Below are positions 3,779 to 26,780 of a stretch of 64,000 nt of DNA, one piece after another. Where the stretch lies: the sequence record PZ445447.1. One strand, given 5' to 3'. Made by a program: the position numbers and the translations under genes. Under the pieces are notes generated by a model. The model had not been told where the DNA came from, made no database searches, and was given only the letters and a program-made list of their open reading frames with translations. Numbering within the stretch: position 1 is the first letter of the stretch; the number at the start of each line of letters is the position of its first letter. The DNA comes from a phage.

Positions 3779-6556
3779 ATGAGCATGTGGTCGTTCGATT
3801 TTGAGTCATCCGGTTTGCTGGAAGACCCAGATCTTTATTATCACTGCGGCCTGTTTAAAGAGCTGAATAAGAACCGTTTTATGCTGTTCCTTCCTCTGAA
3901 TGACCGCACACACTACTCCGAGGAGGATATAGAGAAGGCCAAGAACTTTATTCTGGCAAAGAAAACTCTTTATAAGGATTTTGAAGTTCGCATAGCAGAT
4001 TTTTCGGAGTTGGAAGGTTGGCTTACAGGAAATTCTGACTGGTCACCAACAGCTTTGAACTGCCATAACTGCTACAGTTATGACTTTATGCTGATGGAGA
4101 GATTATCCGGTATTCATTTTGATATGTTCCGTGATCCTAAATGCATGGGGACTATCAACGACCACCAGGTTAACCTGTTTGATACGTTGGCGATGAGCAG
4201 AATCTTGTGGCCTGATCGCCCTTTACCAAAAGGTTGTCCGGACTCTGTATTCAACCCGGTTACTAAGAAAATGCAGCCTGTTGGTCCTCACGGCCTTATG
4301 GCATGGGGCTACGCCCTTGGTAACCAGAAAGTTCAAATTGATGACTGGCGCGATCTTCCGTTGTGGAAGTATGTGGATCGTGTATTCGAGGACGTTATCA
4401 TCCAGGAGCTGCTCTGGAAAGAGCTGGTAGCGGAATCAAAAGGTGTATTCTACGGCAAATCTGACATGCAGAACTTTATGTACGATCCAGCCAAAGAGAA
4501 GCCGAAAGGGTTCAAGAAAATCACCTGGAAGAACGCATTACGCCGAGGCATGCTGCAGCACTTCCTGATGGAGCTGCAGGCCCGTCAGGGTGTGTATTTC
4601 GACATAGATGGGGCTATTGCTTTACGTGACCGTTGCGATGCGTGGATGAAAGAGATCGCTGATCGTGTTGAACCTCAACTTCCTTTAAAAGAGTTGTCAA
4701 TGTCTCAGCGACCCAAGTTCCCTGAAAAGCCGTTTAACCAAGATGGGACAATCTCCAATAATGGTTGGAAATGGTTAAAAGATAAGCTTGGCTATCCTGT
4801 AGACATGAGCGCTTTAGAATTCAAAGCCCCGCCTAAGCGAGCATTTACCTCCACAGGAGATGTCAGCAAGATGGGGATAAAATGGTGCGAAGAGATGGGC
4901 TGCAAAGACCCCGACAAGATGGCTGATTTCTTGAGAGGTTATATTAAGGGCACCTCCACACCACAACCTTTACCTAAAGAGCTGATGGATCAGGCAATAA
5001 GTGATCTGCAGCAGAAGCGAATGCCTGACTGCAAGATACCTATGAAAATCAGCAATCAGGACGACATTAAGCGATACCTGATCAGTGCTGGTTGGCTTCC
5101 GACAATGTGGAGAACTAAGGATGTAACTAAGGACAGCAAGAAGAAAGCTCTACCTGATGCAGATGTTGATGCACGAGTATATGCATACATGGACGAGCTT
5201 TTAGAGTCAGAGTATTGTGACCTAATTATCAACTTCTGGAACAAAACTGATGCTAAGTTTCAGACAACAGTGCACAAGTTCCGAAGCTTTCCTAACTCCG
5301 AAAGGATTAAAAAGGAAGTGTTCGGGAAAATACGCAGAAAAGCCAGGGCACTTATTACTTCTCCGCAACTGAAAGATACGTTTGGACACCTATGTCCGAA
5401 TCTTGAAAAATTGAACGGAGAGATGGCTAAAGATATCGTCTTGTGGTTATCATTGCGAAACCGCAGATCGGTCCTTGATCCAATCAAGGAGGATAAGGTT
5501 GATACTGGTCTTCTTAATCACCCACGTTTGAAGATTGACCATAAGCTTCCTGCTAAAAGCTCTGGATTAACAAACACTTCCCGACAGAAACACAGTATTT
5601 GTGCAAACATGCCTAAACCATCTCCTAAAGTGGTTATGGGTAAAGAGATGCGTAGCTTGTGGGGTGTTCCTCCTGGATATTTTGAGATCGGTATTGACGG
5701 GTCCAACTTAGAGCAGCTTATCGGGGCTTGGGGTGCCTTTGAGTTCGACAACGGCTTGTACTATGATGTTGTAAGTAACGGAGACGCACACCAAAACAAT
5801 GCTGAGGCATATACAAAAGTAGCAGGCAGAGAGGTGTCTCGTAACGACGGTAAACCTATCACGTATGGGGTTATGTACGGGGCACAAAAAGATAAAGTTG
5901 CAGATATGCTGGATATCTCCCCAGAGTTGGGGCAAAGGGTGATCGATGCACTTTGGGATGCCAACCCCGGTCTTAAGGGGCGCAAAGAGGATCTGGAGAA
6001 ATTCTGGGAAGCAACAGGTAAGAAGTTTATCTACTCTTTTGATGGTCATGCTATCTGGACCCGATCTAAACACTCTTTACTTAATGCATACCAACAAAAT
6101 GGTGGTGCATCGCTGTGTGACTTAGTTGGGATACTCATGCACCACCAAATGGTGAAGCGTGGGTGGTACGATGAAGGTGTCCGTCGTATTATTTATTACC
6201 ATGATGAGTACCAACTTCAGGTCCCTGACACACCTAAGTATAAGACTGTGTACACCTTCGACACAATTGAAGAATTGGAAGCATTTAAGGCAGAGCAGGA
6301 GGCCAAACTTCATGTGTTCGACGGTCATAAGTACAAAAAGGCACGCAAGGATGAAAACGGAAACGAAGTGGTTGACAGAGACGGAAACACGGTGTACGAT
6401 CCTATCCTGAACGATGACGGAAAGCTTGAACTTATCTGGAGCCCTGTGGGTGAAATGGTGGTGCATTGCTTCTGGCAAGCTTCTAAAATGATGGGCGTTC
6501 CATTCCAGATCACAGGTGAATACTTGTGCGGTCGTAACTGGGGTGATTGTCACTAA
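3779..6556 (+). CDS. DNA polymerase, family A (Pol I/T7-like) with 3'-5' exonuclease domain
   Basis: Exo I FDFES; motif A DGSNLEQL; motif B RNDGKPITYGVMYG; motif C YYHDEYQ; AAGGAGA RBS; 925 aa. Confidence 0.9.
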   Translation: MSMWSFDFESSGLLEDPDLYYHCGLFKELNKNRFMLFLPLNDRTHYSEEDIEKAKNFILAKKTLYKDFEVRIADFSELEGWLTGNSDWSPTALNCHNCYSYDFMLMERLSGIHFDMFRDPKCMGTINDHQVNLFDTLAMSRILWPDRPLPKGCPDSVFNPVTKKMQPVGPHGLMAWGYALGNQKVQIDDWRDLPLWKYVDRVFEDVIIQELLWKELVAESKGVFYGKSDMQNFMYDPAKEKPKGFKKITWKNALRRGMLQHFLMELQARQGVYFDIDGAIALRDRCDAWMKEIADRVEPQLPLKELSMSQRPKFPEKPFNQDGTISNNGWKWLKDKLGYPVDMSALEFKAPPKRAFTSTGDVSKMGIKWCEEMGCKDPDKMADFLRGYIKGTSTPQPLPKELMDQAISDLQQKRMPDCKIPMKISNQDDIKRYLISAGWLPTMWRTKDVTKDSKKKALPDADVDARVYAYMDELLESEYCDLIINFWNKTDAKFQTTVHKFRSFPNSERIKKEVFGKIRRKARALITSPQLKDTFGHLCPNLEKLNGEMAKDIVLWLSLRNRRSVLDPIKEDKVDTGLLNHPRLKIDHKLPAKSSGLTNTSRQKHSICANMPKPSPKVVMGKEMRSLWGVPPGYFEIGIDGSNLEQLIGAWGAFEFDNGLYYDVVSNGDAHQNNAEAYTKVAGREVSRNDGKPITYGVMYGAQKDKVADMLDISPELGQRVIDALWDANPGLKGRKEDLEKFWEATGKKFIYSFDGHAIWTRSKHSLLNAYQQNGGASLCDLVGILMHHQMVKRGWYDEGVRRIIYYHDEYQLQVPDTPKYKTVYTFDTIEELEAFKAEQEAKLHVFDGHKYKKARKDENGNEVVDRDGNTVYDPILNDDGKLELIWSPVGEMVVHCFWQASKMMGVPFQITGEYLCGRNWGDCH

Positions 6557-14827: not shown

Positions 14828-15156
14828 CAGAGATCATCGTTTCAACTGCAGGGTATGTATTCCTGACAATCATTGCGTTGGCTATTCTGGTGGCGGTGTA
14901 TGGATTTGTTATCCTGCCTATTCTTGAGACATTTAGCTTGTGTCGGTGTTGGAGAAAAGCTTACGGACCACAACCGTGGAAAGACTGGTTTCATTTGGTG
15001 CGTATAGCGTTCTCTTATGCCTATGATCACTCCAGCAGTGCATGCGTAACCGGGTACCATGCCTACAACTGGAACTGGGAAGGGCTTGGGAGATGGACTG
15101 TTACAAAAACTATACCCTTACGGTTGTATAAAGGAAAGAACACACTGGGAGCCTGA
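14824..15156 (+). CDS. hypothetical membrane protein
   Basis: ATGA overlap; N-terminal hydrophobic helix. Confidence 0.55.
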   Translation: MTEIIVSTAGYVFLTIIALAILVAVYGFVILPILETFSLCRCWRKAYGPQPWKDWFHLVRIAFSYAYDHSSSACVTGYHAYNWNWEGLGRWTVTKTIPLRLYKGKNTLGA

Positions 15157-15179
15157 TATTTTAAGTTATCAGATTGCCA

Positions 15180-15660
15180 GAGATCAGGAGGATTTCTAAA
15201 ATGGATTTCCTCCTTTTGATATTTTACCTACCAGGATATTTTAAAATCCTTAGAAAATCAGAAAATGGATCGAAAACTAAAATGGATTTTTCAGAGCAGG
15301 CACGACGAGATGAACCACTCATCCTATCGTCTGCACCATATTCCAGACCACCATTACAGATTTCCCGCACATGCTCACATCCTTCTACTAGAACTTCCCC
15401 CACTTACCCTTGACCTTTTATAGTAATAATCCAACCACTACCTTGAAGTTGTGGCGCAGCTTTCCAAGTACTCGATCTGTTTTTCGTTTCAAAGATTGAA
15501 TTTTCTGAAAATTTTTCTCGATAAATTTCTCAGTACTCGATCTGTTTTTCGTTTTCTGAATCGGATTTTCTGGAAATCGTTCCGGCTCTCGACCTGAAAT
15601 TTTTGGGGACGAAATCGATTTTTCGTTTTCAGAAATGGATTTTTAAAATTTCTATATGGG
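15180..15660. repeat. non-coding direct-repeat tract (iteron-like)
   Basis: GTACTCGATCTGTTTTTCGTTT at 15468 and 15534 plus degenerate copies; four or five AATGGATTTT-type repeats. Confidence 0.6.
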
Positions 15661-15757
15661 AATATTTTAGTGGATACTATTTTATAGGAAATTGTTACGG
15701 AGGGTAATTAGCGTGCTAATTAAATTTATTAAATGCGAGGAGTTCTCATTTAGAATT

Positions 15758-15776
15758 TTGAATGATAATCATTCTC
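15758..15776 (+). promoter_or_regulatory. Fur-box-like operator (copy A)
   Basis: TTGAATGATAATCATTCTC matches Fur consensus GATAATGATAATCATTATC at 15 of 19 (ATGATAATCATT core exact). Confidence 0.5.
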
Positions 15777-15790
15777 GTTTGCAGAATAAC

Positions 15791-15832
15791 GGGCAGGCCC
15801 GGTGATTGTCTCCCGGCCCCTACTGCCCCGGC
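15791..15832. repeat. GC-rich imperfect palindrome element (copy 1 of 3)
   Basis: GGGCAGGCCCGGTGATTGTCTCCCGGCCCC...; related copies at 15926-15970 and inverted at 25152-25199. Confidence 0.55.
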
Positions 15833-15893
15833 TTGTTATTATAGTAACACACAGGACAAAGAAAGCAAGAAGTTTTTGCATAAATTTTTAGAC

Positions 15894-15912
15894 GATAATG
15901 ATAATCGTTCTC
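15894..15912 (+). promoter_or_regulatory. Fur-box-like operator (copy B)
   Basis: GATAATGATAATCGTTCTC matches Fur consensus at 17 of 19. Confidence 0.55.
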
Positions 15913-15925
15913 ATTTCATGCAGCG

Positions 15926-15970
15926 CCCATCCCCGGTGGTTGTCTCCCCCGTCACCGGTGCCTGCCGTCC
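15926..15970. repeat. GC-rich imperfect palindrome element (copy 2 of 3)
   Basis: CCCCGGTGGTTGTCTCCCCCGTCACCGGTGCCTGCCG. Confidence 0.5.
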
Positions 15971-16176
15971 TTTCGATAGGTATATTTTGCCACCTGGCGG
16001 GGCCGCTGTCAACACTTTTCAAAAAAAAAAAAATTTCTAACCTGATGCGCTGACCGCTGCAACCTGGCGGGGCCAGCCTGGCAGGGCCTAACTGACCAGG
16101 TAGGAGAGAATGAAGGCTTGCAAACCTGGTGGGCCTATGCTATAGGATAGGTAACAATTGAAGAGGAGGTACAAAA

Positions 16177-16353
16177 ATGGAAGGTAATATGATCCCCCTG
16201 GAAAATGTAGCTATTAATGACGCTGAGGCTATCGCCCTGGTTGAAAAGGCTATGGCGGGAGCGTTGGAACATAAAGAAGAGTACGAAAAAATGGTGGTTA
16301 ACCTGGCAGGGGCGGCGGCTGGAGAATTCTACCCAAAAAATAATTTTAACTAA
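16177..16353 (+). CDS. hypothetical small protein (58 aa)
   Basis: Not in ORF track (under 60 aa); ATG 7 nt after GAGGAGG RBS; clean 58-codon frame. Confidence 0.5.
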   Translation: MEGNMIPLENVAINDAEAIALVEKAMAGALEHKEEYEKMVVNLAGAAAGEFYPKNNFN

Positions 16354-16438
16354 TGGTTGACAGCTCGGACAGTTCTTGTTATTCTTATCCTCGCAAGGTG
16401 AACAACACCACACCAATTAACAGAGAGGATAAAAAATC

Positions 16439-16636
16439 ATGAACGCCTACGGAATTAAAGTACGTCGCAACACTCGCCAGGTGGTCACCAATCAAGTGAT
16501 TTGCCGGGTGGATGTAACCATCAACAACGGGCAAGGCCTTTATAAATTTCGTCGCGGTCATAGCTATACCCTGCAACAGCTTAACCGTTGCGCCCTGACA
16601 AAAGGTCAGATCAACCACTGGTTTAATAAAAAATAA
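16439..16636 (+). CDS. hypothetical protein
   Basis: AGAGGATAAAAAATCATG RBS context; 65 aa. Confidence 0.55.
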   Translation: MNAYGIKVRRNTRQVVTNQVICRVDVTINNGQGLYKFRRGHSYTLQQLNRCALTKGQINHWFNKK

Positions 16637-16638
16637 TG

Positions 16639-16667
16639 TTGACATATGGTCTGACACAAAATACACT
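16639..16667 (+). promoter_or_regulatory. sigma70-type promoter
   Basis: TTGACA, 17 nt spacer, TACACT. Confidence 0.55.
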
Positions 16668-16699
16668 GAAATCACAAAAGACACTAAGAGGATAAAATC

Positions 16700-17098
16700 A
16701 TGAAAACCACTACCTTTAATTTTGATAATGCGGACTTTTCTTTTTCTGATGTCAAGAACTGCCGCCGTGATCGTGGATTTTACAAGGCTTATAATCTGGT
16801 GGGCCTGGACGATGACAATAATTTGCACGAAGTAGCTGAGATCCGGTATTATGCCGCCGCCAGTGGTAACACTCACTACTGCGTGTTTTGGATTCACGAC
16901 AACAAGAACAATAAGTACGGTTATACTGGCGGCAAGGCGAGCGGTCACGGTTACGATAAAGCTAACGCAGCACTTGAGAGCGCATTAAATGCTATGGGGA
17001 TCACTGCCGACGGCTGGATCTACGAAGAAGAGTTTTTGTCGGCACTTGCTGACCACCTGGGCTATAAAAAGCACATTGTGACATGCGCCCACGAATAA
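16700..17098 (+). CDS. hypothetical protein
   Basis: AAGAGGATAAAATCATG; 132 aa. Confidence 0.6.
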   Translation: MKTTTFNFDNADFSFSDVKNCRRDRGFYKAYNLVGLDDDNNLHEVAEIRYYAAASGNTHYCVFWIHDNKNNKYGYTGGKASGHGYDKANAALESALNAMGITADGWIYEEEFLSALADHLGYKKHIVTCAHE

Positions 17099-17142
17099 AA
17101 ATCATTGACACGCTGCAAAATTTAAGTAAACTAGACACAAAA

Positions 17143-17161
17143 GGCGGGAATGTTTCCCGCC
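17143..17161 (+). promoter_or_regulatory. 5' UTR hairpin (GGCGGGAA..TTCCCGCC family)
   Basis: Perfect 8 bp stem between promoter (TTGACA at about 17104) and RBS; related hairpins at 19689-19707 and 23788-23804. Confidence 0.5.
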
Positions 17162-17181
17162 AGCACAAAGGAAAAAAGATC

Positions 17182-17577
17182 ATGAATAAGAACGTACGCC
17201 GCATCATGAACGAACTGGCAAACGATGAAAAAATTATTGACATGCATTTAGTCAACATTTGCCGCCGTTGTGTAACATATAACAACCGCGCCGCAAAAGC
17301 GCGTGAGATGAACGCAAAAGGCACCTTAAAGCCCTTTCAGGTGGTTGTAAAATCTATAACCAGTGCAGCAGGCCAGGCGCATGACCACAACAACGGGAGC
17401 ACTAATATTGATCCGTCTTACGTAATGAAACGGATCCGGACTTGCAAGAATAAAGAGCAGGTGTATAATGTCATAGACTGGTTGGATTCTATGGGCGATG
17501 TGGTTTACAATAGGTTTTCTGCAGCTATCGAGATCCAGCTTGACAGGTTGGACGGTAAAGTACTGAAAACTTACTAA
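17182..17577 (+). CDS. hypothetical protein
   Basis: Start moved to ATG downstream of promoter, hairpin and AAAGGA RBS; in frame with ORF 17083-17577. Confidence 0.55.
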   Translation: MNKNVRRIMNELANDEKIIDMHLVNICRRCVTYNNRAAKAREMNAKGTLKPFQVVVKSITSAAGQAHDHNNGSTNIDPSYVMKRIRTCKNKEQVYNVIDWLDSMGDVVYNRFSAAIEIQLDRLDGKVLKTY

Positions 17578-17578
17578 G

Positions 17579-17626
17579 ATTATTTTTAGATGGCCTTGAC
17601 TTCAGGGCCATCAATAAAGTAAACTA
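17579..17626 (+). repeat. repeated intergenic cassette (promoter-plus-stem-loop-like), copy 1
   Basis: GATTATTTTTAGATGGCCTTGACTTCAGGGCCATCAATAAAGTAAACT; near-identical copies at 18209-18256 and 21949-21994. Confidence 0.7.
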
Positions 17627-17657
17627 ATCCCAGTTAAGCGAAAAAGGAGGCTTGAAG

Positions 17658-17777
17658 ATGAGCACTGCACGCCAACACACAAAGGTAACGATTATCGTTT
17701 GCATCATTGGTTACATCCTGGCGCAAATGTTGATGGGTAGCGCCAATGATTTCGCAAAATTTTTCTTAGACTTTTAA
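17658..17777 (+). CDS. hypothetical small membrane peptide (39 aa)
   Basis: AAAGGAGG RBS 7 nt upstream; hydrophobic core VTIIVCIIGYILAQMLMG; not in ORF track. Confidence 0.45.
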   Translation: MSTARQHTKVTIIVCIIGYILAQMLMGSANDFAKFFLDF

Positions 17778-17805
17778 TTGACAAGCTAACTTAAATCAGT
17801 ATAAT
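17778..17805 (+). promoter_or_regulatory. sigma70-type promoter
   Basis: TTGACA, 16 nt spacer, TATAAT. Confidence 0.7.
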
Positions 17806-17857
17806 ACTAAGCACATAAACGGGAAAACTTCCCAGAACACCAAAAGGAGAAAACATT

Positions 17858-18208
17858 ATGAATACTTCCATCACTATGACCGCCGAAGAAAAAGCCCTGC
17901 AGATCGCCGCTCTGAAAAAACAGATTGCAGAACTTGAAGACAAGATCGACAATTTTGAAATCGACGAAGACAAGTACGACGATAAATATGATGAATGGTT
18001 AGACGAGATCTACGGCGAAATTATGATCGGAAACATCTCTTTTCTTCCGTCGCGTATCCTCAAGGAGCTAGATCCTATCGCTTACCGCTGCGGATTTAGC
18101 GACTACATCGACAGCCTGGATATTGAGGACGATGAAGAATACCAGGAATTACAGACAGAGTTAGAAGAAGCAAAAGAAGAGCTTGCAGAACTGGAAGAAA
18201 ACGAGTAA
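17858..18208 (+). CDS. hypothetical highly acidic protein
   Basis: AAAGGAGAAAACATTATG leader; many D/E residues; 116 aa. Confidence 0.6.
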   Translation: MNTSITMTAEEKALQIAALKKQIAELEDKIDNFEIDEDKYDDKYDEWLDEIYGEIMIGNISFLPSRILKELDPIAYRCGFSDYIDSLDIEDDEEYQELQTELEEAKEELAELEENE

Positions 18209-18256
18209 GATTATTTTTAGATGGCCTTGACTCCAGGGCCATCAATAAAGTAAACT
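18209..18256 (+). repeat. repeated intergenic cassette, copy 2
   Basis: GATTATTTTTAGATGGCCTTGACTCCAGGGCCATCAATAAAGTAAACT directly after a stop codon. Confidence 0.7.
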
Positions 18257-18297
18257 TTATACTGTTAACACTGAACTAATGCATAGGAGTTAAAACC

Positions 18298-18543
18298 ATG
18301 GCAGCACTAATCACCAAATATTATGCCCCTACCAACACCAAAAGCGCCCGTATCATGGTAAAAGGATTCGGACGTAAAAAGGTGTACACCTGGGATTATG
18401 CCTTAGACACGGAAGACAACTACACCAACGCGATGACCGATTTTATTAATGATCTGAACACGCGGATCTTGACAAATTATAAAATTACCGATATTGCCTA
18501 TATAGGGGAAGGCGGGATCTGTTTTGTCGGTATCGTCAAATAA
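18298..18543 (+). CDS. hypothetical protein
   Basis: ATAGGAGTTAAAACCATG leader (same as gene at 22912); 81 aa. Confidence 0.6.
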   Translation: MAALITKYYAPTNTKSARIMVKGFGRKKVYTWDYALDTEDNYTNAMTDFINDLNTRILTNYKITDIAYIGEGGICFVGIVK

Positions 18544-18554
18544 GCTGTTTTTTC

Positions 18555-18590
18555 GGTGGTCCTGGTAGCAGGGCCATCTATAAAGATAGT
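18555..18590 (+). repeat. degenerate copy of the intergenic cassette
   Basis: GGTGGTCCTGGTAGCAGGGCCATCTATAAAGATAGT shares the GGGCCATC-ATAAAG core. Confidence 0.4.
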
Positions 18591-18618
18591 TTATCAATAC
18601 AATGAAAGGAGAAAGTAC

Positions 18619-18972
18619 ATGATCAGCGGGGCAAGTTTTATTATTGGCGCTATTGCTACGGCTTTAATTGTAAACAAGATCCAATCTAAAAACGAAAAAG
18701 ATAGCAACGCCCTTACAGAATACCCGTTTTGGGTATTCAACGACAATGAAGACTATATTATCAAGTACAAGAATGAGAAGGGCGACCAGGTAACACCGCG
18801 ACCGATCCCGGCTTACAAGATGCAAGAAACACTATACCGCCTAAAGGCTGGAGGCGCAAAAATCGTAGACTTTTGGGGATACGATCACACAGATCAGGAA
18901 GTTATAAAGCGCCGTATCCGGGCTATTCAGGCCAATATTGAAGTTAGCAAGGGGGGAATATATGAAGATTAA
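18619..18972 (+). CDS. hypothetical membrane-anchored protein
   Basis: AAAGGAGAAAGTACATG; N-terminal TM helix; in frame with ORF 18556-18972. Confidence 0.55.
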   Translation: MISGASFIIGAIATALIVNKIQSKNEKDSNALTEYPFWVFNDNEDYIIKYKNEKGDQVTPRPIPAYKMQETLYRLKAGGAKIVDFWGYDHTDQEVIKRRIRAIQANIEVSKGGIYED

Positions 18973-19159
18973 TTTTGAGAAGATTGTAAAGCGATCTCAT
19001 GCTTCCGAAGAGCTGCCGGAACGCCGCCAGCGCAACAATAAACTGAATAAGCCAAAAAGATTTGGGAAGATCTGGCGGAATCATTATGATCGCAAATTAC
19101 CGGGCCTGCTTTTGGAACGTGAACGACAGGCGGAACGATACCGCCACAAAGGCAAATAA
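18962..19159 (+). CDS. hypothetical small basic protein
   Basis: AAGGGGGG RBS; R/K-rich; 65 aa. Confidence 0.5.
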   Translation: MKINFEKIVKRSHASEELPERRQRNNKLNKPKRFGKIWRNHYDRKLPGLLLERERQAERYRHKGK

Positions 19160-19167
19160 CAACCAAC

Positions 19168-19194
19168 GCCCCGCCATTGTGCGGGGCTTTTTAT
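19168..19194 (+). terminator. rho-independent terminator
   Basis: CGCCCCGCC-ATTGT-GCGGGGC then TTTTT. Confidence 0.7.
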
Positions 19195-19340
19195 TTCTAT
19201 CCTACAAATAGCGCCCCTGGTTGGCCCTGTAAGCGCCAAAAAGGCCCCACCTATGCAATCGCCCCCCTTTAACCTGAAAACATCGCTTAGGGCCGTTTTA
19301 TGGCGTTAAAAATATCATTGACAGTGATTTTATTTAAAGC

Positions 19341-19368
19341 TTGACATCTTAAACAGGTTAGCTATACT
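19341..19368 (+). promoter_or_regulatory. sigma70-type promoter
   Basis: TTGACA, 16 nt spacer, TATACT; a second TTGACA lies 25 nt upstream. Confidence 0.6.
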
Positions 19369-19400
19369 AACCACATCAAAGAGAGAAAGGAGTAAACGCC

Positions 19401-19661
19401 ATGCGTAAATTAAAAAATTTTGATAAAGTTGATGTTGTCCTGAATAATTTTTACTACTGCAACAACAAGGCCATTTGGTGGCGTGATAGTTCCACCGATA
19501 AAGTCAAGGCGCGCTTTCTCCAGGGGCACTGGCAAGGCCGCCCAGTGATTAAAATCATGGGGCAATTGGTAGCGTTTAAAAATTGCCGCCGTGTTGATGA
19601 CGTTGAAGAGATCTTGAATATTTTACGCCACAATAATTTAAAAAATAGTGTTGACAAGTAA
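19401..19661 (+). CDS. hypothetical protein
   Basis: GAGAAAGGAG RBS; 86 aa. Confidence 0.6.
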   Translation: MRKLKNFDKVDVVLNNFYYCNNKAIWWRDSSTDKVKARFLQGHWQGRPVIKIMGQLVAFKNCRRVDDVEEILNILRHNNLKNSVDK

Positions 19662-19679
19662 ATCTCAATAAGTATACTT
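19651..19679 (+). promoter_or_regulatory. sigma70-type promoter
   Basis: TTGACA, 17 nt spacer, TATACT; followed by hairpin GGCGGGAAGTTTTCCCGCC. Confidence 0.65.
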
Positions 19680-19735
19680 AAGCACACAGGCGGGAAGTTT
19701 TCCCGCCACTAACAAAGAAAATAGGAGAAAATATC

Positions 19736-20359
19736 ATGACCACCGTTAACATTACCACAGGTTGCAATTTATCTTTCGACGTGCTGACCGACGAACAAAA
19801 AGAAAAAGCTATTGAAATGGTCCGCGAAAGAGAAGAACACAGCGGAGAGGATTTTTTCGCAGAAAGTGTAATTGAATATTATAAAGAACAAGTTTTTCCA
19901 GAGTACGGCCTTGAAGATACCGATGTACATTGGTCCGGCTTTTGGTGTCAAGGCGATGGCGCGTCAATTAGTGCTGAAAATGTAGACTTAGAGAAATTCT
20001 TGCGTAAAGTCAAGGCCCTGACCAAGTTCCGATCAATTCGTCACTTGTTCGGCACAATGCACGATGGCGAACTATCAGCCAGTGTTGAACGCGACAAGTA
20101 CAGCCATTACAGCCATGAAAACACTGTAAGCGGATATATTGATACTACCTGGCTAGATCTGACCGCAAAACAAGAAAATAAAGTAGAAGATCTGGAAGAG
20201 CTGATCACCGAGACGGTACGGGAGCTATCCCGCAAGGTTTATGTAGACCTGGAGGAGGCCTATCTTGAACAGTTTACTACCGAAAACCTGATCGGCCTTA
20301 TTGAAGCCAATGATTGGCGGTTTGATGTGGATGAATATGGAGAAATGAGTTTTTCATAA
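19736..20359 (+). CDS. hypothetical protein
   Basis: AATAGGAGAAAATATCATG leader; 207 aa; no confident family. Confidence 0.6.
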   Translation: MTTVNITTGCNLSFDVLTDEQKEKAIEMVREREEHSGEDFFAESVIEYYKEQVFPEYGLEDTDVHWSGFWCQGDGASISAENVDLEKFLRKVKALTKFRSIRHLFGTMHDGELSASVERDKYSHYSHENTVSGYIDTTWLDLTAKQENKVEDLEELITETVRELSRKVYVDLEEAYLEQFTTENLIGLIEANDWRFDVDEYGEMSFS

Positions 20360-20450
20360 ATAAAGTGTTGCAATAATCTAAAAACCTGCTATATTAAAAC
20401 TTAAGGGGGCGAGATGACTTGCCCCCACACAAAACAAAGAGGAAAACATC

Positions 20451-20831
20451 ATGAAAAACACTACTAAAGCTATTGACACCGTTATGTTTAACCTGGTTAC
20501 ATTCCGTGAAGATATGAAAGATCTTCCACGTGAAACAGTGTGCGACCATATCGAAAACTATCGCAAACTAATCAAAGAGTTGCCTTTAAAACGTGACCAG
20601 TACGCGGCTAACGCTATGCTTAACGCCATGATCAAGAAAATGATTCAGTGCGATTTGACTTTAGCTTATGATTATGCAGGTGGTCGTTTTGCAGTATACA
20701 ATCAGCCCGTGCCTGGTATGAGCACCACAGAAGAATTGCACGCGTTAAATCTAAAACAAGACGTATGGGATAACATGCCCCGCGTGGTGGTGTGGGCAGA
20801 AAGCGGAAAGATTTACGGCGATAATTTTTAA
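20451..20831 (+). CDS. hypothetical protein
   Basis: Promoter, hairpin GGGGGCGAGATGACTTGCCCCC and AAAGAGGAAAACATCATG leader. Confidence 0.6.
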   Translation: MKNTTKAIDTVMFNLVTFREDMKDLPRETVCDHIENYRKLIKELPLKRDQYAANAMLNAMIKKMIQCDLTLAYDYAGGRFAVYNQPVPGMSTTEELHALNLKQDVWDNMPRVVVWAESGKIYGDNF

Positions 20832-20840
20832 TCAGGTAAC

Positions 20841-20866
20841 AGGCGGCATATTTGCCGCCTTATTGT
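20841..20866 (+). terminator. rho-independent terminator
   Basis: AGGCGGCATATTTGCCGCCT then T-rich. Confidence 0.65.
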
Positions 20867-20895
20867 TAAACAGAACTGCAAAAGAGGTACATAGA

Positions 20896-21267
20896 ATGGA
20901 ATTTATTATTTTGGCTGTAGTAGTTGCCTTGTTCAACGCCTGGATCGCTGGCAAGATGGGTAGATCCGCTTTTCTATGGTTTGTTATATCTATTTTCCTG
21001 GGAGTGGTTGCAACTATTGTATTGGTTATCCTTGCAATTGTTGACAAGGGGAATAATAGAAAGGGTAAAGTATTTTCAGACCTGTACGACGCTCAAACGT
21101 TTGTCAACGCCTATTATAGTGATCTTCCAGTCTCCCTACGTTGCAGCCTTGCACAACAGGTTTTCGATGAAGCTAAAACCAGAGATCACGCCCATGAGAT
21201 TTGTTTAACTGAGGCGGATCGCCTATTTGAGAGGAATAGAAAATATGTGGACCAGCCGTTTAAATAA
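20896..21267 (+). CDS. hypothetical membrane protein (two predicted TM helices)
   Basis: AAAGAGG RBS; in frame with ORF 20863-21267. Confidence 0.55.
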   Translation: MEFIILAVVVALFNAWIAGKMGRSAFLWFVISIFLGVVATIVLVILAIVDKGNNRKGKVFSDLYDAQTFVNAYYSDLPVSLRCSLAQQVFDEAKTRDHAHEICLTEADRLFERNRKYVDQPFK

Positions 21268-21377
21268 TGCCACGTTAATTAACCCCTTTAGTGAAGATTT
21301 GAAGCCAGCCGCCTGGCGGGATGGATTCAATAACGAAAGCTTTATTTTCAGGCCTGATCTTAAGGAATTTTATAACA

Positions 21378-21503
21378 ATGGATCGAACAACGACAGAGAT
21401 AATTTTTCTTGTAATGTGCGTGGTGATAATACTCCTGGGGGCCATTGCAAACCACGTCACTGCTAACAGGAGGAAAGGGGGAGACGATGACACCCAAGGA
21501 TAA
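21378..21503 (+). CDS. hypothetical small membrane peptide (41 aa)
   Basis: AAGGA upstream; TM helix IIFLVMCVVIILLGAI with charged tail; the overlapping ORF 21245-21466 is N-rich low complexity. Confidence 0.4.
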   Translation: MDRTTTEIIFLVMCVVIILLGAIANHVTANRRKGGDDDTQG

Positions 21504-21606
21504 GCCCCGCACCGATAAGGCGCGCCGTGTTATGGTATGGCTTGAGATCATCGCCCTTGAAATATTGTTAGGCGTAGGGATGTATTTTATCGCTGTAAGT
21601 AACTGA
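21487..21606 (+). CDS. hypothetical small membrane peptide (39 aa)
   Basis: AGGAGGAAAGGGGGAG RBS; basic N-terminus then TM helix; not in ORF track. Confidence 0.4.
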   Translation: MTPKDKPRTDKARRVMVWLEIIALEILLGVGMYFIAVSN

Positions 21607-21745
21607 TAACGGCCCCGATCCCTGGGGCCTAACTTTTCAAATTTTTTCTCCCTGAGTGTTGCAATCCGATCCAGAATATGGATAATAACAATCAACGGGG
21701 AGACACTCCCCACCGCATAGACAAAGTTCCAAAAGGAGAAACAAA

Positions 21746-21946
21746 ATGAGCAACAATATCCGCGTTATTAACTTCAAAAAAGAAGAAAAAATTGCCGTGC
21801 TGATTGACGGTCAAGAAATCTTTAAAGGTGATTATGAAGATCATCAAACGGCGATTAGTATCACTCGCGTGATTGGTTACCATAATTTTTACCCTCAAGG
21901 CGCTGAGGCAGCAGTAAAACGAATTAAAGAGATTGTAGGCCTGTAA
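21746..21946 (+). CDS. hypothetical protein
   Basis: TTGCAA...TGGATAATAA promoter-like sequence, hairpin GGGGAGACACTCCCC, AAAGGAGAAACAAAATG. Confidence 0.6.
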   Translation: MSNNIRVINFKKEEKIAVLIDGQEIFKGDYEDHQTAISITRVIGYHNFYPQGAEAAVKRIKEIVGL

Positions 21947-21948
21947 AA

Positions 21949-21994
21949 TTTATTTTTAGATGGCCTTGACTCCAGGGCCATCAATAAAGTAAAT
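21949..21994 (+). repeat. repeated intergenic cassette, copy 3
   Basis: TTTATTTTTAGATGGCCTTGACTCCAGGGCCATCAATAAAGTAAAT. Confidence 0.7.
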
Positions 21995-22031
21995 TTAAAC
22001 CCTGTTAAAATAATCAGTGCAAAAAGGAGTA

Positions 22032-22337
22032 ATGATCATGTTTATCCAGGCTAATAATCTTTATTTCTTTGATGGTCAGATCGTAGACGGCGTGGAGGTG
22101 GAAATCACCGGGTGCCCTGGCGGTCAGGTTATGACTTTTCGGAATAATGCCTTTGATGATTCTCATATCGTTATGAGAATGGAAGTTAGTAAGCTGGATG
22201 ACAAGAAAACACTTATCGACTATTCCGTCAAAGATCATCCAGACTACCACATGATCTATGGTGATTTGTGCATTGTTGACCGTGACAAGGTGGGCGGCAT
22301 TGTGATCGCTATTGTGAACGATGTTTTCTCAAACTAA
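22032..22337 (+). CDS. hypothetical protein
   Basis: AAAGGAG RBS; in frame with ORF 22017-22337. Confidence 0.55.
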   Translation: MIMFIQANNLYFFDGQIVDGVEVEITGCPGGQVMTFRNNAFDDSHIVMRMEVSKLDDKKTLIDYSVKDHPDYHMIYGDLCIVDRDKVGGIVIAIVNDVFSN

Positions 22338-22354
22338 TTTCAGCAGGTGATTTT

Positions 22355-22705
22355 ATGAAAGTAAAACTATATTACCTTAATGAGCTTAACCCCCTTGCCC
22401 AGGTCCGCGCCCTGGCTAATACCTTGATTTGTGAGAAATCTGTATATTGTGTTGAGCTTAACGCCATGCGTGAACGTCTCAAAGGTGGTTACTTTGACAT
22501 CCATGCTGCAATCAACGGCCTGAATATGGAATTTATCCGCTTACGTAACAGCCGCCAGAATCTGGCAAGAATGGAACAAGATCCGGCCCACCTTCGTAAG
22601 CTGGTTATTGAAAATCATCTGATGTTTAATGCCGATGGTGATTATTACCATTTTCACCGTAAACGCTGGTACCGTAGCGGCAATATAGGAAAGAATGCAA
22701 AATAA
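22355..22705 (+). CDS. hypothetical protein
   Basis: 116 aa; followed by two hairpins. Confidence 0.55.
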   Translation: MKVKLYYLNELNPLAQVRALANTLICEKSVYCVELNAMRERLKGGYFDIHAAINGLNMEFIRLRNSRQNLARMEQDPAHLRKLVIENHLMFNADGDYYHFHRKRWYRSGNIGKNAK

Positions 22706-22742
22706 GGCCCCTGGCAGGGCCTGCAGCGATATAATCACATAA

Positions 22743-22774
22743 AGGCTATGCGGTTGCATAGCCTTTATTATTTT
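22743..22774 (+). terminator. rho-independent terminator
   Basis: AGGCTATGCGGTTGCATAGCCT then TTATTATTTT. Confidence 0.7.
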
Positions 22775-22911
22775 GGCGTTACAGCGGCCCCCAAGGCGCT
22801 TAAAAAATTTTTAAAGAAGTACTTGCATCAAGTCCTACAATATGGATAATAAAGGGTGTCGGGGGGCGGGGAGGCCTCCAATCATTAACCGGATAGATAG
22901 GAGTTAAAACC

Positions 22912-23196
22912 ATGGCTATTGTTACCGTTGGCGATGTAATAGAAATGGAAGCCAAATACTTAAAAGCTGGTATGCATATCATACGGAATGATCAAGAATT
23001 GTTATTAACCATGGTTGAATATAATCCCGGTCAGGATTATCCAAGCATTGACTACTTTTTCCAGTATGTTGATGAAGAATTAAAAGAGGATGAGGCTTAT
23101 CAGGGTGAATTTTGTAATTTCTTTTGCTCTGATGAGGTTGTAAAAGTTATCTATCAACCTGGCGTACCTTTCCCGCTGCACGCTATCAATAAATAA
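22912..23196 (+). CDS. hypothetical protein
   Basis: ATAGGAGTTAAAACCATG leader; 94 aa. Confidence 0.6.
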   Translation: MAIVTVGDVIEMEAKYLKAGMHIIRNDQELLLTMVEYNPGQDYPSIDYFFQYVDEELKEDEAYQGEFCNFFCSDEVVKVIYQPGVPFPLHAINK

Positions 23197-23252
23197 ACCT
23201 GGCGGGGCCGAAAAGGCCCCCCAATTATGAAAATAAAGAGAGGCAAATCATC

Positions 23253-23486
23253 ATGATGGAACAAATTAAACGCGCCGAGGCTATTAATGGCAACGTGATC
23301 TATTTTGTCAGCAAAAACGAAAAAGGCGTACCCTATGCGGCTGTAATAGTACAGCCTGACGGCGATTATTGGTGCACTGTGTACGGCGCTTATTCTTTTG
23401 GGCGTCCAGTGCATGATAAAATTTTGAAAGTAGCGAACCCTACCGGGAAAAATATTACAGCAGAAAAATTTTTTGAAAATAGTTGA
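23253..23486 (+). CDS. hypothetical protein
   Basis: AAGAGAGG RBS; 77 aa. Confidence 0.55.
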   Translation: MMEQIKRAEAINGNVIYFVSKNEKGVPYAAVIVQPDGDYWCTVYGAYSFGRPVHDKILKVANPTGKNITAEKFFENS

Positions 23487-23510
23487 CATGACCTTATAAG
23501 ACTGTAGAAT
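23483..23510 (+). promoter_or_regulatory. sigma70-type promoter
   Basis: TTGACA, 16 nt spacer, TAGAAT; followed by hairpin GGGGGCAACAAGCCCC. Confidence 0.6.
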
Positions 23511-23561
23511 ATAAATCAAAGGGGGCAACAAGCCCCACCAACCACAAAGAGGATAAAAATC

Positions 23562-23741
23562 ATGGCTATTATTGCAAAGACTGAGATCGTAGGCTTAGAT
23601 TCTATTCTCCTCGCATATGAGGAAGCTATAGAAATGTATGTGGTTTCCTATGGTGAATATATCCGTGAATATAAATCTATTGATCTAGCTTTTGAATGTT
23701 ATATTCGCCAGGTCAATAAAGCATATGATGATTATCGTTAA
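23562..23741 (+). CDS. hypothetical small protein (59 aa)
   Basis: Complete promoter-hairpin-AAAGAGGATAAAAATCATG module; clean 59-codon frame; not in ORF track. Confidence 0.5.
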   Translation: MAIIAKTEIVGLDSILLAYEEAIEMYVVSYGEYIREYKSIDLAFECYIRQVNKAYDDYR

Positions 23742-23747
23742 AATAGT

Positions 23748-23776
23748 TTGACAACAGTCAACAATCTGGTAAAGTG
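23748..23776 (+). promoter_or_regulatory. sigma70-type promoter
   Basis: TTGACAACAGTCA (same -35 context as the promoter at 8022); followed by hairpin GCGGGAATACTTCCCGC. Confidence 0.5.
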
Positions 23777-23823
23777 TACTACATAGCGCGGGAATACTTC
23801 CCGCCATTAATGAGGGTAATTTA

Positions 23824-23961
23824 ATGAAAACTTTCAACGCAACAGCCTCGACAATTGGTTATATTATTACAGTACAGGCCGTGGATCTGGTAGCAGCAGC
23901 AAACAAGATTAAAAAGATGATTCCGCCAGGTAGTGAATTTTCCGTTTGGGAAGTAAAATAA
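23824..23961 (+). CDS. hypothetical small protein (45 aa)
   Basis: ATG after AATGAGGGTAA leader; frame verified codon by codon to TAA at 23959. Confidence 0.4.
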   Translation: MKTFNATASTIGYIITVQAVDLVAAANKIKKMIPPGSEFSVWEVK

Positions 23962-24044
23962 ATCTTGACAATAGTTTATTACTTGATAGACTGTATTTCG
24001 TAGGGCGGGGCAATAAGGCAACGCCCATTAATGAGGGTAGAATC

Positions 24045-24149
24045 ATGTTAGAGAAAATTTTCACGGTTGTAGTAGTTGGCCTGGCATTATCGGTTGGAGT
24101 GGTTGCAACTATGGCTAACATGATCCTATCTTCCCACGGTATCGGTTAA
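24045..24149 (+). CDS. hypothetical small hydrophobic peptide (34 aa)
   Basis: Promoter (TTGACA 23965), hairpin, AATGAGGGTAGAATCATG leader; sequence LEKIFTVVVVGLALSVGVVATMANMIL. Confidence 0.45.
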   Translation: MLEKIFTVVVVGLALSVGVVATMANMILSSHGIG

Positions 24150-24159
24150 GGTGAATCAA

Positions 24160-24375
24160 ATGATCACGAATAAGACAGGTAAAACAGAATTTTTACGCGG
24201 CTTGCAAATAGGTAAGCCTGAGATCTGGCATTGCACTAAAACACCACGTGACGAAATGAAAGACTTCACCGCCACGCTGCAACGGGTAAAGATATCCATC
24301 ACGCAGAAAAAGGCCTTGATAGTGGTGGAAGGTGAGATCCCTCAAACCGTTGTTATAGTTGAGCGTACAGCATAG
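24160..24375 (+). CDS. hypothetical protein
   Basis: AAGGTG RBS; 71 aa. Confidence 0.5.
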   Translation: MITNKTGKTEFLRGLQIGKPEIWHCTKTPRDEMKDFTATLQRVKISITQKKALIVVEGEIPQTVVIVERTA

Positions 24376-24466
24376 TTTAATTTATAGCGATACCTGAAAA
24401 TTAACCAATAAATCATAAACAGGCGGTTACCGCCGCCTTAAACGTAGCAGAAAGAGGCTAGACACA

Positions 24467-24751
24467 ATGAAAAAGATGATCGCAGTAGTTGCCCTGGTTG
24501 TTGGACTTAATGCGCCTGTAATGGCTAAAGAGCTGGCAAAAGAGGTTAATCTAACGGATATCCATGCCGTCAATCAAATCGGGGTTACTTATCGCTTATG
24601 CCTTGCCGCTAAAACTTTTAATGACGGCACAACAGAGTACTACGGATTCGAGGGTATCCGGTGCGGTGAGCTTGCTCGCGACCTTAAGGAAGATCCAGAC
24701 CTGGAAGATCTGCCCATCACCGTAAACGGTAAAGCTTACGTAAACCGTTAA
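24467..24751 (+). CDS. hypothetical secreted protein
   Basis: AAAGAGG RBS; N-terminal signal-peptide-like MKKMIAVVALVVGLNAPVMA. Confidence 0.6.
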   Translation: MKKMIAVVALVVGLNAPVMAKELAKEVNLTDIHAVNQIGVTYRLCLAAKTFNDGTTEYYGFEGIRCGELARDLKEDPDLEDLPITVNGKAYVNR

Positions 24752-24900
24752 CCGTGAAAAAGATAATCATTACCTTGGGGATTGTGGCGGGATCGCTGGC
24801 GCTCTTTCCCCTTATGGTTAGATATGTGCTGATCAGTATTGTCCTGGTGGTCAGTGATCTACTAGAAACGGTTGGCACCTTGTTTTAAAGAGCGATAAAA

Positions 24901-25092
24901 ATGAATGTTGAACAAGTTAGAAAGGTATTGGCGGTACTGCGTTATCATAATCATAGAAAGGTCATAGACGATCCTGATTATGTTGATTCAAGTCTGGAAG
25001 AGGATACACTACAAGCCATAAGTAACATGCAAGAATTGCTAAAGCGCATGACAGAGAAAAACCGACCGGACTACATAGGCGAAAAAATATAA
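24901..25092 (+). CDS. hypothetical protein
   Basis: ORF track; weak RBS; terminator-like hairpin downstream. Confidence 0.45.
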   Translation: MNVEQVRKVLAVLRYHNHRKVIDDPDYVDSSLEEDTLQAISNMQELLKRMTEKNRPDYIGEKI

Positions 25093-25151
25093 TCCTTATT
25101 AACTAGAAAACAGGGCTTGCAATGGTCCTGTTTTTTGTTATACTTATTACA

Positions 25152-25199
25152 CGGCAGGCACCTGGCGACGGGGGGAGACAATCACCGGGCCTGCCTGTC
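25152..25199. repeat. GC-rich imperfect palindrome element (copy 3, inverted)
   Basis: ACGGCAGGCACCTGGCGACGGGGGGAGACAATCACCGGGCCTGCCTGT; reverse complement matches the elements at 15791 and 15926. Confidence 0.55.
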
Positions 25200-25220
25200 A
25201 TATAAGAACTATAAAAACCG

Positions 25221-25249
25221 TTGACATCTGCCAGGTGGTGGGGTAACAT
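25221..25249 (+). promoter_or_regulatory. sigma70-type promoter
   Basis: TTGACA, 17 nt spacer, TAACAT; followed by hairpin GGGCAAAAGTGCCC. Confidence 0.55.
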
Positions 25250-25303
25250 TTATCTTGAAGGGGCAAAAGTGCCCACACAACAACCAGAAGAGAGGAAAAC
25301 ATT

Positions 25304-25576
25304 ATGTCAAGCTGGATTAATCAAGAAGTCGAATCACGTTTTAATGCTATTTGGGATCTCATCGAAAAAGAGGACGGAACATCAAGCCCTTATCTCAATA
25401 ATCTTGAATTCCATTTCGTGGAAGCGATGAACGCAGAACATGATCACGAAGGTGGTGCGGATGAGTTCGCTAAAGGGTATGGCTTCAACAATGCCAACGA
25501 AATGATCGAGGCGGTTGTACTCCAGGCTGAGGAAGATTATCAATTAAAAACGCTTGAATTCTGCCGCCGTAAGTAA
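25304..25576 (+). CDS. hypothetical protein
   Basis: AGAAGAGAGGAAAACATTATG leader; 90 aa. Confidence 0.6.
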   Translation: MSSWINQEVESRFNAIWDLIEKEDGTSSPYLNNLEFHFVEAMNAEHDHEGGADEFAKGYGFNNANEMIEAVVLQAEEDYQLKTLEFCRRK

Positions 25577-25636
25577 TAAGATAATGACACGGGCCAAAAG
25601 GCCCACTAATCAGAACCACACAAAGAGAGAAAGAAA

Positions 25637-25855
25637 ATGACAACCCGTAAAATTAAAGTTGTTTGCATTGAATCGACTGGGGGCGCTTTTGTAGTTGGTC
25701 AGGAATATAATGCGGTTTTAATGGGTACGGATTGGAAGGTTAAAGGCCTTAATGGTTACGAGTACGGCACTACTTGCGGCTTGCGTGGTCGAATCGGATA
25801 CGTGAGTTTAGACAACAAAGAAAAATTTGTTTTCGACACCGTTGTGAGTAAATAG
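25637..25855 (+). CDS. hypothetical protein
   Basis: AAAGAGAGAAAGAAAATG leader; 72 aa. Confidence 0.55.
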   Translation: MTTRKIKVVCIESTGGAFVVGQEYNAVLMGTDWKVKGLNGYEYGTTCGLRGRIGYVSLDNKEKFVFDTVVSK

Positions 25856-25933
25856 CATGAATTGCTAAAGACTGATCTGCGAACTGCTGTATTATCAACT
25901 AATCAAAACGAACCGCATAAAGAGGAAAACATC

Positions 25934-26761: not shown

Positions 26762-26780
26762 TTTTTTAACTGAATTATCA

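Follow-up and report, generated by a model that had tools for sequence, protein, structure and literature searches.

A conserved non-coding repeat module in the rV5-like phage MaxBurger and its possible role in the initiation of replication

Two described designs of replication origins come close to a repeat array which we have analyzed in Escherichia phage MaxBurger (Bas54), an rV5-like phage of the genus Vequintavirus. The DNA studied is a stretch of 64,000 nucleotides (nt), below called the window, which is 100% identical to the MaxBurger record MZ501093.1, window position 1 being record position 66025. The repeats sit in a module of ~1 kb without open reading frames (ORFs), 15157-16176, amid a long run of rightward genes. 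One design is that of phage T7, where replication starts from promoters followed by AT-rich DNA. The T7 primary origin has the promoters phi1.1A and phi1.1B and an AT-rich region, works with gp4 and gp5, and is found, like the MaxBurger module, in the first 8-15% of a linear genome whose terminal repeats are direct. The other design is that of the iteron origins (lambda ori, P1 oriR, RK2 oriV, pSC101), in which direct copies of a ~20-bp site stand beside an AT-rich region and a GC-rich segment.

For ICP1, a lytic phage and virulent myovirus, the origin has been located from coverage profiles early in infection (PMC7145576). The iterons of its satellite PLE in the same study are semi-palindromic and converge on an A tract, much like box A and the T tract described below; the sequences and the initiator family (RepA_N) are, however, unrelated to the MaxBurger array. 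For rV5 the authors' skew analysis failed to locate an origin (PMC3606486), and no origin is therefore assigned elsewhere. Our literature search found no paper mapping transcription or replication in Vequintavirinae, none on their early control circuits, and none describing the module.

MaxBurger has a T7-like replisome, since both a gp4-like primase-helicase and a family A polymerase were found. The primase-helicase matches T7 gp4 chains with E 4e-16, and the domains DnaB_C and DNA_pol_A were detected in the replisome genes, which are:

1642-3720, rightward: T7 gp4-like primase-helicase, upstream of the module
3779-6556, rightward: family A DNA polymerase, upstream of the module

The module shares with the T7 primary origin this type of replisome and two tandem candidate promoters directed into a non-coding, meltable stretch. 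It differs in that its promoters are host sigma-70-like and oppose the neighbouring genes, and that the repeat array and the Fur boxes are absent in T7. With the iteron origins it shares the direct site copies (a 22-bp site twice exactly, one degenerate copy and two half sites), the adjacent AT-rich unwinding element (15634-15735) and the GC-rich segment, and the site sequence varies by lineage, as a cognate initiator would predict. It differs from them in irregular spacing (19-52 bp), in composite units of 40-70 bp, and in having no DnaA or IHF boxes and no initiator gene in or beside the array.

The module was compared with the syntenic gaps of seven other phages (phiTE, KaOmega, Mydo, 4MG, ChuuTotoro, W70 and nepoznato). 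We conclude that the array is probably cis-acting DNA, bound by a phage-specific protein, in a conserved and insulated control module. The reading we favour for the module as a whole, with a probability of about 0.4, is that it would be a replication origin which is activated by transcription and carries a binding array specific to the phage.

The repeat array and the module around it

The 22-mer GTACTCGATCTGTTTTTCGTTT occurs in two exact copies, at 15468-15489 and 15533-15554, and has no further match with up to three mismatches in the window, the expectation from shuffled sequence being 0. The initial annotation reported this pair together with a third, degenerate copy, and both statements are correct, the units being in register; the distance between the pair, given as about 66 bp, is exactly 65 bp from start to start. 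A repeat search defines three in-register 47-nt units at 15458, 15523 and 15597 with identities of 77%, 100% and 74% and spacings of 65 and 74. Additional AAATGGATTTT-type repeats had also been described from the AT-rich tract (27-37% GC), and they are present: four of the seven window matches with at most one mismatch fall here (15199, 15280, 15612 and 15633), where 3.27 are expected over the whole window. GATTTY/AATGGATTTT boxes are enriched, with 11 GATTTY observed against 2.0 expected (~5-fold). The annotation missed that the two repeat types are parts of one composite unit, made up of box A GGTNCTCGATC, a T5C tract, box B and an A/T tract, and that the Fur boxes, upstream of which it placed the tract, belong to the same larger module. 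Box B is GATCGTATTT in other sampled phages and has drifted to RATGGATTTT in Vequintavirus.

Five boxes make up the array, three of them full or degenerate GGTNCTCGATC boxes with the T5C tract and two of them half boxes. They start at 15471, 15517, 15536, 15588 and 15607, at intervals of 46, 19, 52 and 19 bp, so that the earlier description as regularly spaced is right only loosely. The full core CTCGATC is found at 15471 and 15536 and a degenerate palindromic copy at 15607; the half boxes CTCGATA (15517) and CTCGACC (15588) are each placed 19 bp ahead of a full or degenerate box. The AA/TT dinucleotides of the array show a weak periodicity of 11 bp and 22 bp (p 0.004 and 0.012, uncorrected). 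From left to right the module and its border contain:

15154-15163, 15217-15226 and 15235-15244, + strand: three GATATTT(T) boxes, the first overlapping the stop codon of the upstream gene
15186-15226, + strand: candidate intrinsic terminator of the upstream rightward operon, hairpin GGAGGAU...AUUUCCUCC and then UUUUGAUAUUUU
15190-15295: cluster 1 of GATTTY / AAATGGATTT boxes in both orientations, starts at 15191, 15204, 15243, 15254, 15264 and 15285
15296-15465: variable spacer, its + strand rich in C and poor in G, with a GC skew from -0.5 to -0.66
15458-15522, + strand: repeat unit 1, in which full box A GTACTCGATC (from 15468) is followed by the T5C tract, box B GATTGAATTTT, the A4T5 tract and, at 15517, the half box CTCGATA
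15523-15596, + strand: repeat unit 2, in which the T5C tract comes after a full box A (from 15533) and is followed by box B AATCGGATTTT and, at 15588, the half box CTCGACC
15597-15660, + strand: repeat unit 3, degenerate, box A now palindromic GAAATCGATTTC, box B AAATGGATTTT, 74% identity to unit 2
15634-15735: AT-rich stretch, easily melted, that separates the array from the Fur boxes; candidate DNA unwinding element
15758-15776: Fur box A TTGAATGATAATCATTCTC, 15/19 positions as in the Fur consensus, kept in every other sampled phage
15781-15868, - strand: conserved element A, core GGAGACAATCACC, with a leftward sigma-70-like promoter
15894-15912: Fur box B GATAATGATAATCGTTCTC, 17/19 positions as in the Fur consensus
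15917-16033, - strand: element B with a leftward promoter (TTGACA 16012-16007, 17 nt, TG-CAAAAT 15989-15984), T13 tract upstream, scan score 10/12 with TG
16118-16146, + strand: candidate rightward promoter for the terminal gene block (TTGCAA, 17 nt, TATAGG), read from the sequence

Rightward transcription entering the module would meet two candidate + strand terminators, at 15186-15226 and at 15599-15650. The hairpin of the former has a folding energy of -15.5 kcal/mol (z -2.3) on the + strand and -10.8 kcal/mol (z -0.9) on the - strand, and it is invariant in 11 genomes while its flanks are variable. In unit 3 the + strand RNA forms a hairpin of 16 bp, of which four are wobble pairs, with a U run after it (-15.9 kcal/mol, z -3.5; terminator-like match 15599-15636), and because of the wobble pairs this hairpin is specific to the + strand RNA. 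The spacer between the two would be rut-like in a rightward RNA, or G-rich and prone to R-loops if transcribed leftward; its negative GC skew is also found in ChuuTotoro, W70, phiTE and 4MG but not in Mydo or KaOmega.

The stretch 15634-15735 is the third least stable segment of the window at both 60 bp and 100 bp, and 15475-15775 is the third least stable at 300 bp. The promoter of element A has its -35 (TTGCTT) at 15868-15863 and its -10 (TACTAT) at 15846-15841, the latter overlapping a TATAAT at 15843-15838. A cassette of promoter and transcribed element, with the core GGAGACAAWCACC, is present three times in MaxBurger: 15781-15868 (-), 15917-16012 (-) and 25117-25196 (+). All ten element copies examined (the three in MaxBurger and one in each of the seven other phages) have a sigma-70-like promoter (7-10 of 12) ahead of them in the same orientation and at a similar distance; consensus folding of element A as RNA gave no structure on either strand. 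The leftward promoters of the module run counter to all surrounding genes and, with no ORF ahead of them, lead to the array by way of the Fur boxes and the low-stability DNA. Fur box B overlaps the -10 of a candidate rightward promoter (TTGCAT 15876-15881, GATAAT 15900-15905), read from the sequence.

Promoter spacers in and beside the module hold CCWGG sites (15993, 16063, 16077, 16096, 16125 and 25231), with 6 sites in 1 kb or ~3-fold over the expectation, and the gene at 888-1652 encodes a Dcm-like cytosine methyltransferase; a methylation-dependent control of the module promoters is possible. Fur box A is overlapped by a 30-codon ORF with a GTG start (15714-15805), which has GGAGGG ahead of it at good spacing and is invariant in the genus, with no counterpart in other sampled phages.

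Conservation of the module and what it argues against

Of 117 Vequintavirus records, 116 contain 80% or more of the tract, and an alignment of 11 genomes has zero indels from 15466 to ~16020. The pairwise diversity (pi) of units 2 and 3 is 0.011-0.054; the flanking genes have ~0.03-0.11 and the spacer 0.18-0.30. Unit 3 and the stretch 15236-15295 are invariant in the genus. Unit 1 exists as two haplotypes without indels, the second of which restores GGATTTT, and the spacer 15296-15465 likewise falls into two haplotype groups. FFH2 and A12a have an altered half box at 15588. A divergent metagenomic relative (L039) has kept the array while its spacer has diverged.

With blastn the Fur-box and element part aligns to phages of Certrevirus, Mydovirus, Seunavirus and Phapecoctavirus and to unclassified relatives. 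Six Vequintavirinae phages from at least three genera other than Vequintavirus (phiTE, KaOmega, Mydo, 4MG, ChuuTotoro and W70) share one layout: two to three GATATTT boxes, GAAATC/GATTTC boxes, a spacer, three to seven box-A units, one to three Fur boxes and the element. In phiTE, KaOmega, Mydo, 4MG and W70 a cluster of two to three TGATATTTG follows straight after the upstream gene. The consensus of 20 units (40 bp) is GG-N2-CTCGATC-N3-TTTTC-N~10-ATCGTATT, and all its matches lie within modules. A repeat spacing not conserved in related phages had been named in the initial annotation as part of what would refute it, and on this point the outcome is mostly in its favour: within Vequintavirus the spacing is invariant, 13 genomes having no indels, and elsewhere the copy order and the 18-20 bp offset from half box to full box are kept (the latter in MaxBurger, rV5, 4MG, KaOmega, phiTE and W70), but the unit length differs.

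The box itself occurs as the variants GGTA/GGTT/GGGT-CTCGATC and GAACTTGAGAGG. In W70 every box has been changed to GAACTTGAGAGG and the T tract is retained, and this concerted change suggests that the site co-evolves with a binding protein encoded by the phage itself. In nepoznato, which belongs to another subfamily, unrelated direct repeats are found at the corresponding place. Two to four Fur-like palindromes are found at the equivalent position in phiTE, KaOmega, Mydo, 4MG, ChuuTotoro and nepoznato. The modules of phiTE, KaOmega, Mydo and 4MG are closed by promoters equivalent to the candidate at 16118-16146 (TTGAC(A/C/G)-17-CACAAT or TACTAT), and in the same four phages GTAAA-N5-GTAAA stands just upstream of the leftward -35 (~3110-3135 in the sampled locus L012, equivalent places in L014, L015 and L016). 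In spacing and sequence this motif is like a CpxR box. The motif is absent in Vequintavirus, where the T13 tract is found upstream of promoter B instead. The phiTE annotation has only the word "terminator" at the module.

The phages outside Vequintavirus have an extra conserved GC-rich element of ~110 nt, ACCGGCGATCCACCTTCC...GTTAGCCCCGCCTTTTCGCCGTGGGGTGGCG (L012 ~3140-3230, same place in L013-L018), beside which stands a variable small leftward gene (DUF7170, the GWQGGTVHQV family, or another). Rfam has no match to the element, and neither it nor the small gene is present in MaxBurger. Directly upstream of the module these other phages encode a fast-evolving acidic protein of ~270 amino acids (aa) without a Pfam domain:

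L012, 1563-2399
L014, 453-1268
L015, 445-1269
L016, 351-1211
L017, 517-1296
L018, 427-1245

In phage YP-6 (L008, 761-1405) a gene of 214 aa is inserted immediately left of the module and has taken the place of the initial 78 nt of the gap. The T5 repeat regions, too, show mobile genes beside repeats.

The view that the repeats form a non-coding, protein-binding array, already put forward in the initial annotation, is well supported by the wide conservation, the concerted box change, the low diversity beside a fast spacer, and the lack of a coding or RNA-structure signal. No coding signal is found in the array: annotators differ in strand and frame or call nothing, the NCBI annotation of CP057073.1 has no coding sequence in the tract, and the ORFs called here in MaxBurger (bas54_0100, 0101 and 0102) have no Shine-Dalgarno sequence, as had been pointed out. 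The array is judged not to be coding because the unit length of 65 nt is not a multiple of three and the frames are inconsistent. That the tract has no function of its own, being a set of small real genes or a decaying duplication, is very improbable indeed. ORFs of 34-92 codons are annotated in it in several records and a 52-codon + frame (15265-15423) is open in most genomes, but the annotations conflict in strand and frame, a ribosome-binding site is missing, all codon positions are conserved, and the spacer frames differ between haplotypes. An open frame in a C-rich, G-poor spacer is expected by chance at ~17% per frame, as estimated from base composition, and in Mydo the ORF that starts in Fur box A runs into a stop after 7 codons. 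A decaying duplication would neither vary less than the flanking genes nor keep its layout across all sampled phages.

Several known kinds of repeats were considered and rejected. A structured RNA is ruled out by the Rfam scan (one sub-threshold match of 22 bits in the window region, where 126 are needed, and none in seven related loci), by the absence of a consensus structure, and by folding energies at the level of shuffled sequence (z +0.9 and +1.0 for the array, i.e., no more structured). Repeat RNAs of the type III antitoxin kind are tandem, near-identical repeats of 34-40 nt set between promoter and terminator, whereas the units here are 65-74 nt long with 74-79% identity, and synteny with the pseudo-ToxI of phiTE was rejected since that locus lies at 106.7 kb in phiTE. 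A sponge for CsrA was discarded because the GGA motifs, frequent in MaxBurger, are not conserved in the other sampled phages. SeqA/Dam control was set aside as well: in the other phages most units have a second GATC ~20 bp downstream of the box-A GATC, and MaxBurger has lost all of them. By eye, on both strands, no conserved -10 element of a promoter inside the units (sigma-70, sigma-E, sigma-28, T4 MotA-type) could be seen.

In viral and genome collections single matches to the box motif occur at about the estimated chance number, and the double-box matches outside the family are clustered regularly interspaced short palindromic repeat (CRISPR) arrays of planctomycetes. The contigs in question are metagenome-assembled genomes (L078 and others) with a 36-nt CRISPR repeat GTCTCGATCCCTTTTTCATCAGGGTCGGTTTTGAAC, which shares GTCTCGATC-NN-TTTTTC with box A of Certrevirus. 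A CRISPR array or solitary repeat, which would show repeats of 28-37 nt like those of a host CRISPR with unique spacers between them, was rejected, as this 15-nt match to the planctomycete repeat is the sole shared motif and is judged coincidental. To our knowledge the array does not resemble the type I-E and I-F CRISPR repeats of E. coli, no comparison with enterobacterial repeats having been made with any tool. No homologue of the module was found in E. coli chromosomes or in true plasmids, the one "plasmid" match being a whole phage genome.

Replication origin or another control region

The model we favour has the following steps. Rightward transcription from the operon with the replication genes would be halted before the array by the intrinsic terminator, the C-rich tract and the unit-3 hairpin. 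Host RNA polymerase would initiate at the two conserved leftward promoters (15868-15841 and 16012-15984), ahead of which there is no coding target. The leftward transcription would cross the Fur boxes, enter 15634-15735, where the DNA of the region melts most easily, and then reach the array. Transcription together with phage protein bound to the array would open the duplex and allow the T7-like replisome to load, as at the T7 primary origin. An origin is favoured because a T7-like replisome is combined with tandem non-coding promoters aimed at meltable DNA and the array, and because rightward transcription would be excluded and the rV5 paper placed no origin by skew. The initial annotation had proposed a replication origin as one of two readings of the repeats, and this is plausible; the meltable DNA, the inward conserved promoters and the T7-like replisome speak for this proposal, and the missing DnaA and IHF boxes, the missing neighbouring initiator gene and the missing signal in GC skew speak against it.

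The points which weigh against an origin are these. The boxes are spaced by 46, 19, 52 and 19 bp and not by the regular ~22 bp of classical iterons, and T7-type origins need no iterons, which leaves the repeat array without a defined role in such an origin. DnaA boxes amount to one weak match where 1.5 are expected, IHF sites are absent, and GATC is not enriched in the MaxBurger tract. Searches of Pfam and PHROG with the proteins adjoining the module left all their functions unassigned and gave no initiator- or regulator-like gene, and the ~270-aa upstream protein of the other phages has no detectable homologue within the MaxBurger window. The skew follows transcription only, with no inflection attributable to replication, and the promoters and terminators of the module are consensus matches only. 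There is also a competing location, a 2.5 kb ORF-free tract (26762-29273) where two gene blocks converge and which holds the physical genome ends; its DNA at ~27.3 kb and 28.6-28.7 kb is the least stable in the window, less stable still than that of the module, and it has exact 20-mer and 18-mer repeats of its own.

The same module might instead be an operator or roadblock array, in which a phage regulator on the boxes controls a promoter hub between two transcription units, for example by gating the leftward Fur-linked or the rightward terminal-block promoters at a switch from early to middle expression, replication being uninvolved. We regard this as possible but rather unlikely. The module is placed exactly at the junction of the two units, with the upstream operon's terminator on one side and the downstream block's promoters on the other, and it carries sites for host signals, i.e., Fur boxes in every sampled phage and the CpxR-like GTAAA-N5-GTAAA in four. 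The concerted change in W70 fits a specific regulator, the phased A/T tracts fit a bent nucleoprotein complex, and the p4/p6 switch regions of phage phi29 are reportedly a precedent. The geometry is less favourable, since from the nearest leftward promoter down to the boxes the distance is 130-370 bp, and from the rightward promoters 250-650 bp, so that the boxes overlap no -35 or -10; no regulator gene was identified among the neighbours, and the leftward promoters lack a coding target also here. A function at the level of RNA appears improbable. It would have the leftward transcript act, with unstructured A-rich repeats that sequester a protein or are cut by one in processing, as a sponge or antitoxin-like RNA, or else a + strand small RNA ending at the unit-3 hairpin. 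Conserved predicted promoters do aim into the array, the hairpin is specific to one strand, and the relative phiTE does carry a repeat RNA, pseudo-ToxI (PMC3475682). However, neither strand of the array has a fold-energy signal or an Rfam match, no terminator follows past the array in the leftward direction, and upstream of the units there is no conserved + strand promoter, TTGCCA/TAAAAT at 15174-15202 being in non-conserved sequence. The imperfect units of 65-74 nt are moreover unlike antitoxin repeats of 34-40 nt, and the pseudo-ToxI of phiTE is at another locus.

A checkpoint for DNA entry, similar to the injection stop signal of T5, would let the module bound a first-entering terminal segment of ~11-12 kb with ~45 small genes. 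The ends of the genome are relevant here. According to Korf et al. (PMC6563267), the genomes of the Vequintaviruses EdH4 and HdK5 end at fixed positions and are terminally redundant over 458 bp; in the HdK5 record we confirmed a direct terminal repeat of 459 bp, which maps to 27807-28265 of the window and therefore places the module 11.2-12.2 kb (8.0-8.8% of the genome) from one physical end. All genes in between are transcribed toward that end. Fixed ends and a conserved ORF-free repeat tract ~8% from one of them are thus common to both phages, the first-step-transfer segment of T5 being 7.9%. The T5 region is likewise ORF-free, repeat-rich and more conserved than its neighbouring genes (Davison, 10.1101/866236), the two tracts being of 1-1.7 kb, and daunorubicin, which acts early in infection, hits both Vequintavirinae and T5-like phages (PMC13250531). 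MaxBurger differs in having neither the DnaA-box pairs of T5 nor large inverted repeats like its 131-bp ones, and its terminal repeat is 0.46 kb compared with 10 kb in T5. The longest ORF of the terminal block (16177-26761) has 207 aa, as against ~556 aa in A1, which together with A2 forms the second-step-transfer proteins of T5; this is an argument of size only, with no homology search behind it. A two-step transfer has never been reported for these phages. We consider an entry checkpoint improbable, to about the same degree as a function in RNA.

Setting in the phage genome and meaning for the rV5-like phages

Between the polymerase gene and the module there are ~25 small genes, the final one of which ends at 15156, and downstream of the module follow ~45 small genes from 16177 to 26761. 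Some of the records used deserve a remark. A 137.6 kb circular "plasmid" from a cattle isolate of E. coli (CP057073.1, L081) is a complete Vequintavirus genome with a module 99.4% identical to that of MaxBurger, which suggests a carrier state or a co-assembled phage. Sixteen records labelled "Campylobacter phage" (host C. jejuni) are 92-98% identical to MaxBurger over the region and are probably mislabelled or contaminant Vequintaviruses.

The module is best classed as a variant of known cis-acting control regions of phages, origin-like or checkpoint-like, and what is unusual about it is the presence of Fur boxes and of a counter-directed promoter across the subfamily. The leftward promoters, flanked by Fur boxes and in four phages by CpxR-like sites, might fire into the array as part of an origin or entry checkpoint gated by host signals throughout the subfamily. 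This we consider unlikely, but if it were true the gating would tie the start of replication, or the entry of the remaining genome, to the host's iron status and envelope stress.

If the module is an origin, as we favour, the T7-type and the iteron-type design would be combined in it; were it a checkpoint like that of T5, two-step DNA delivery would extend to a second, unrelated group of phages. The rV5-like phages are widely used in O157 biocontrol and in phage collections, and the module offers in them a small, bounded and deeply conserved place to look for the origin, with links to Fur and possibly Cpx signalling of the host.

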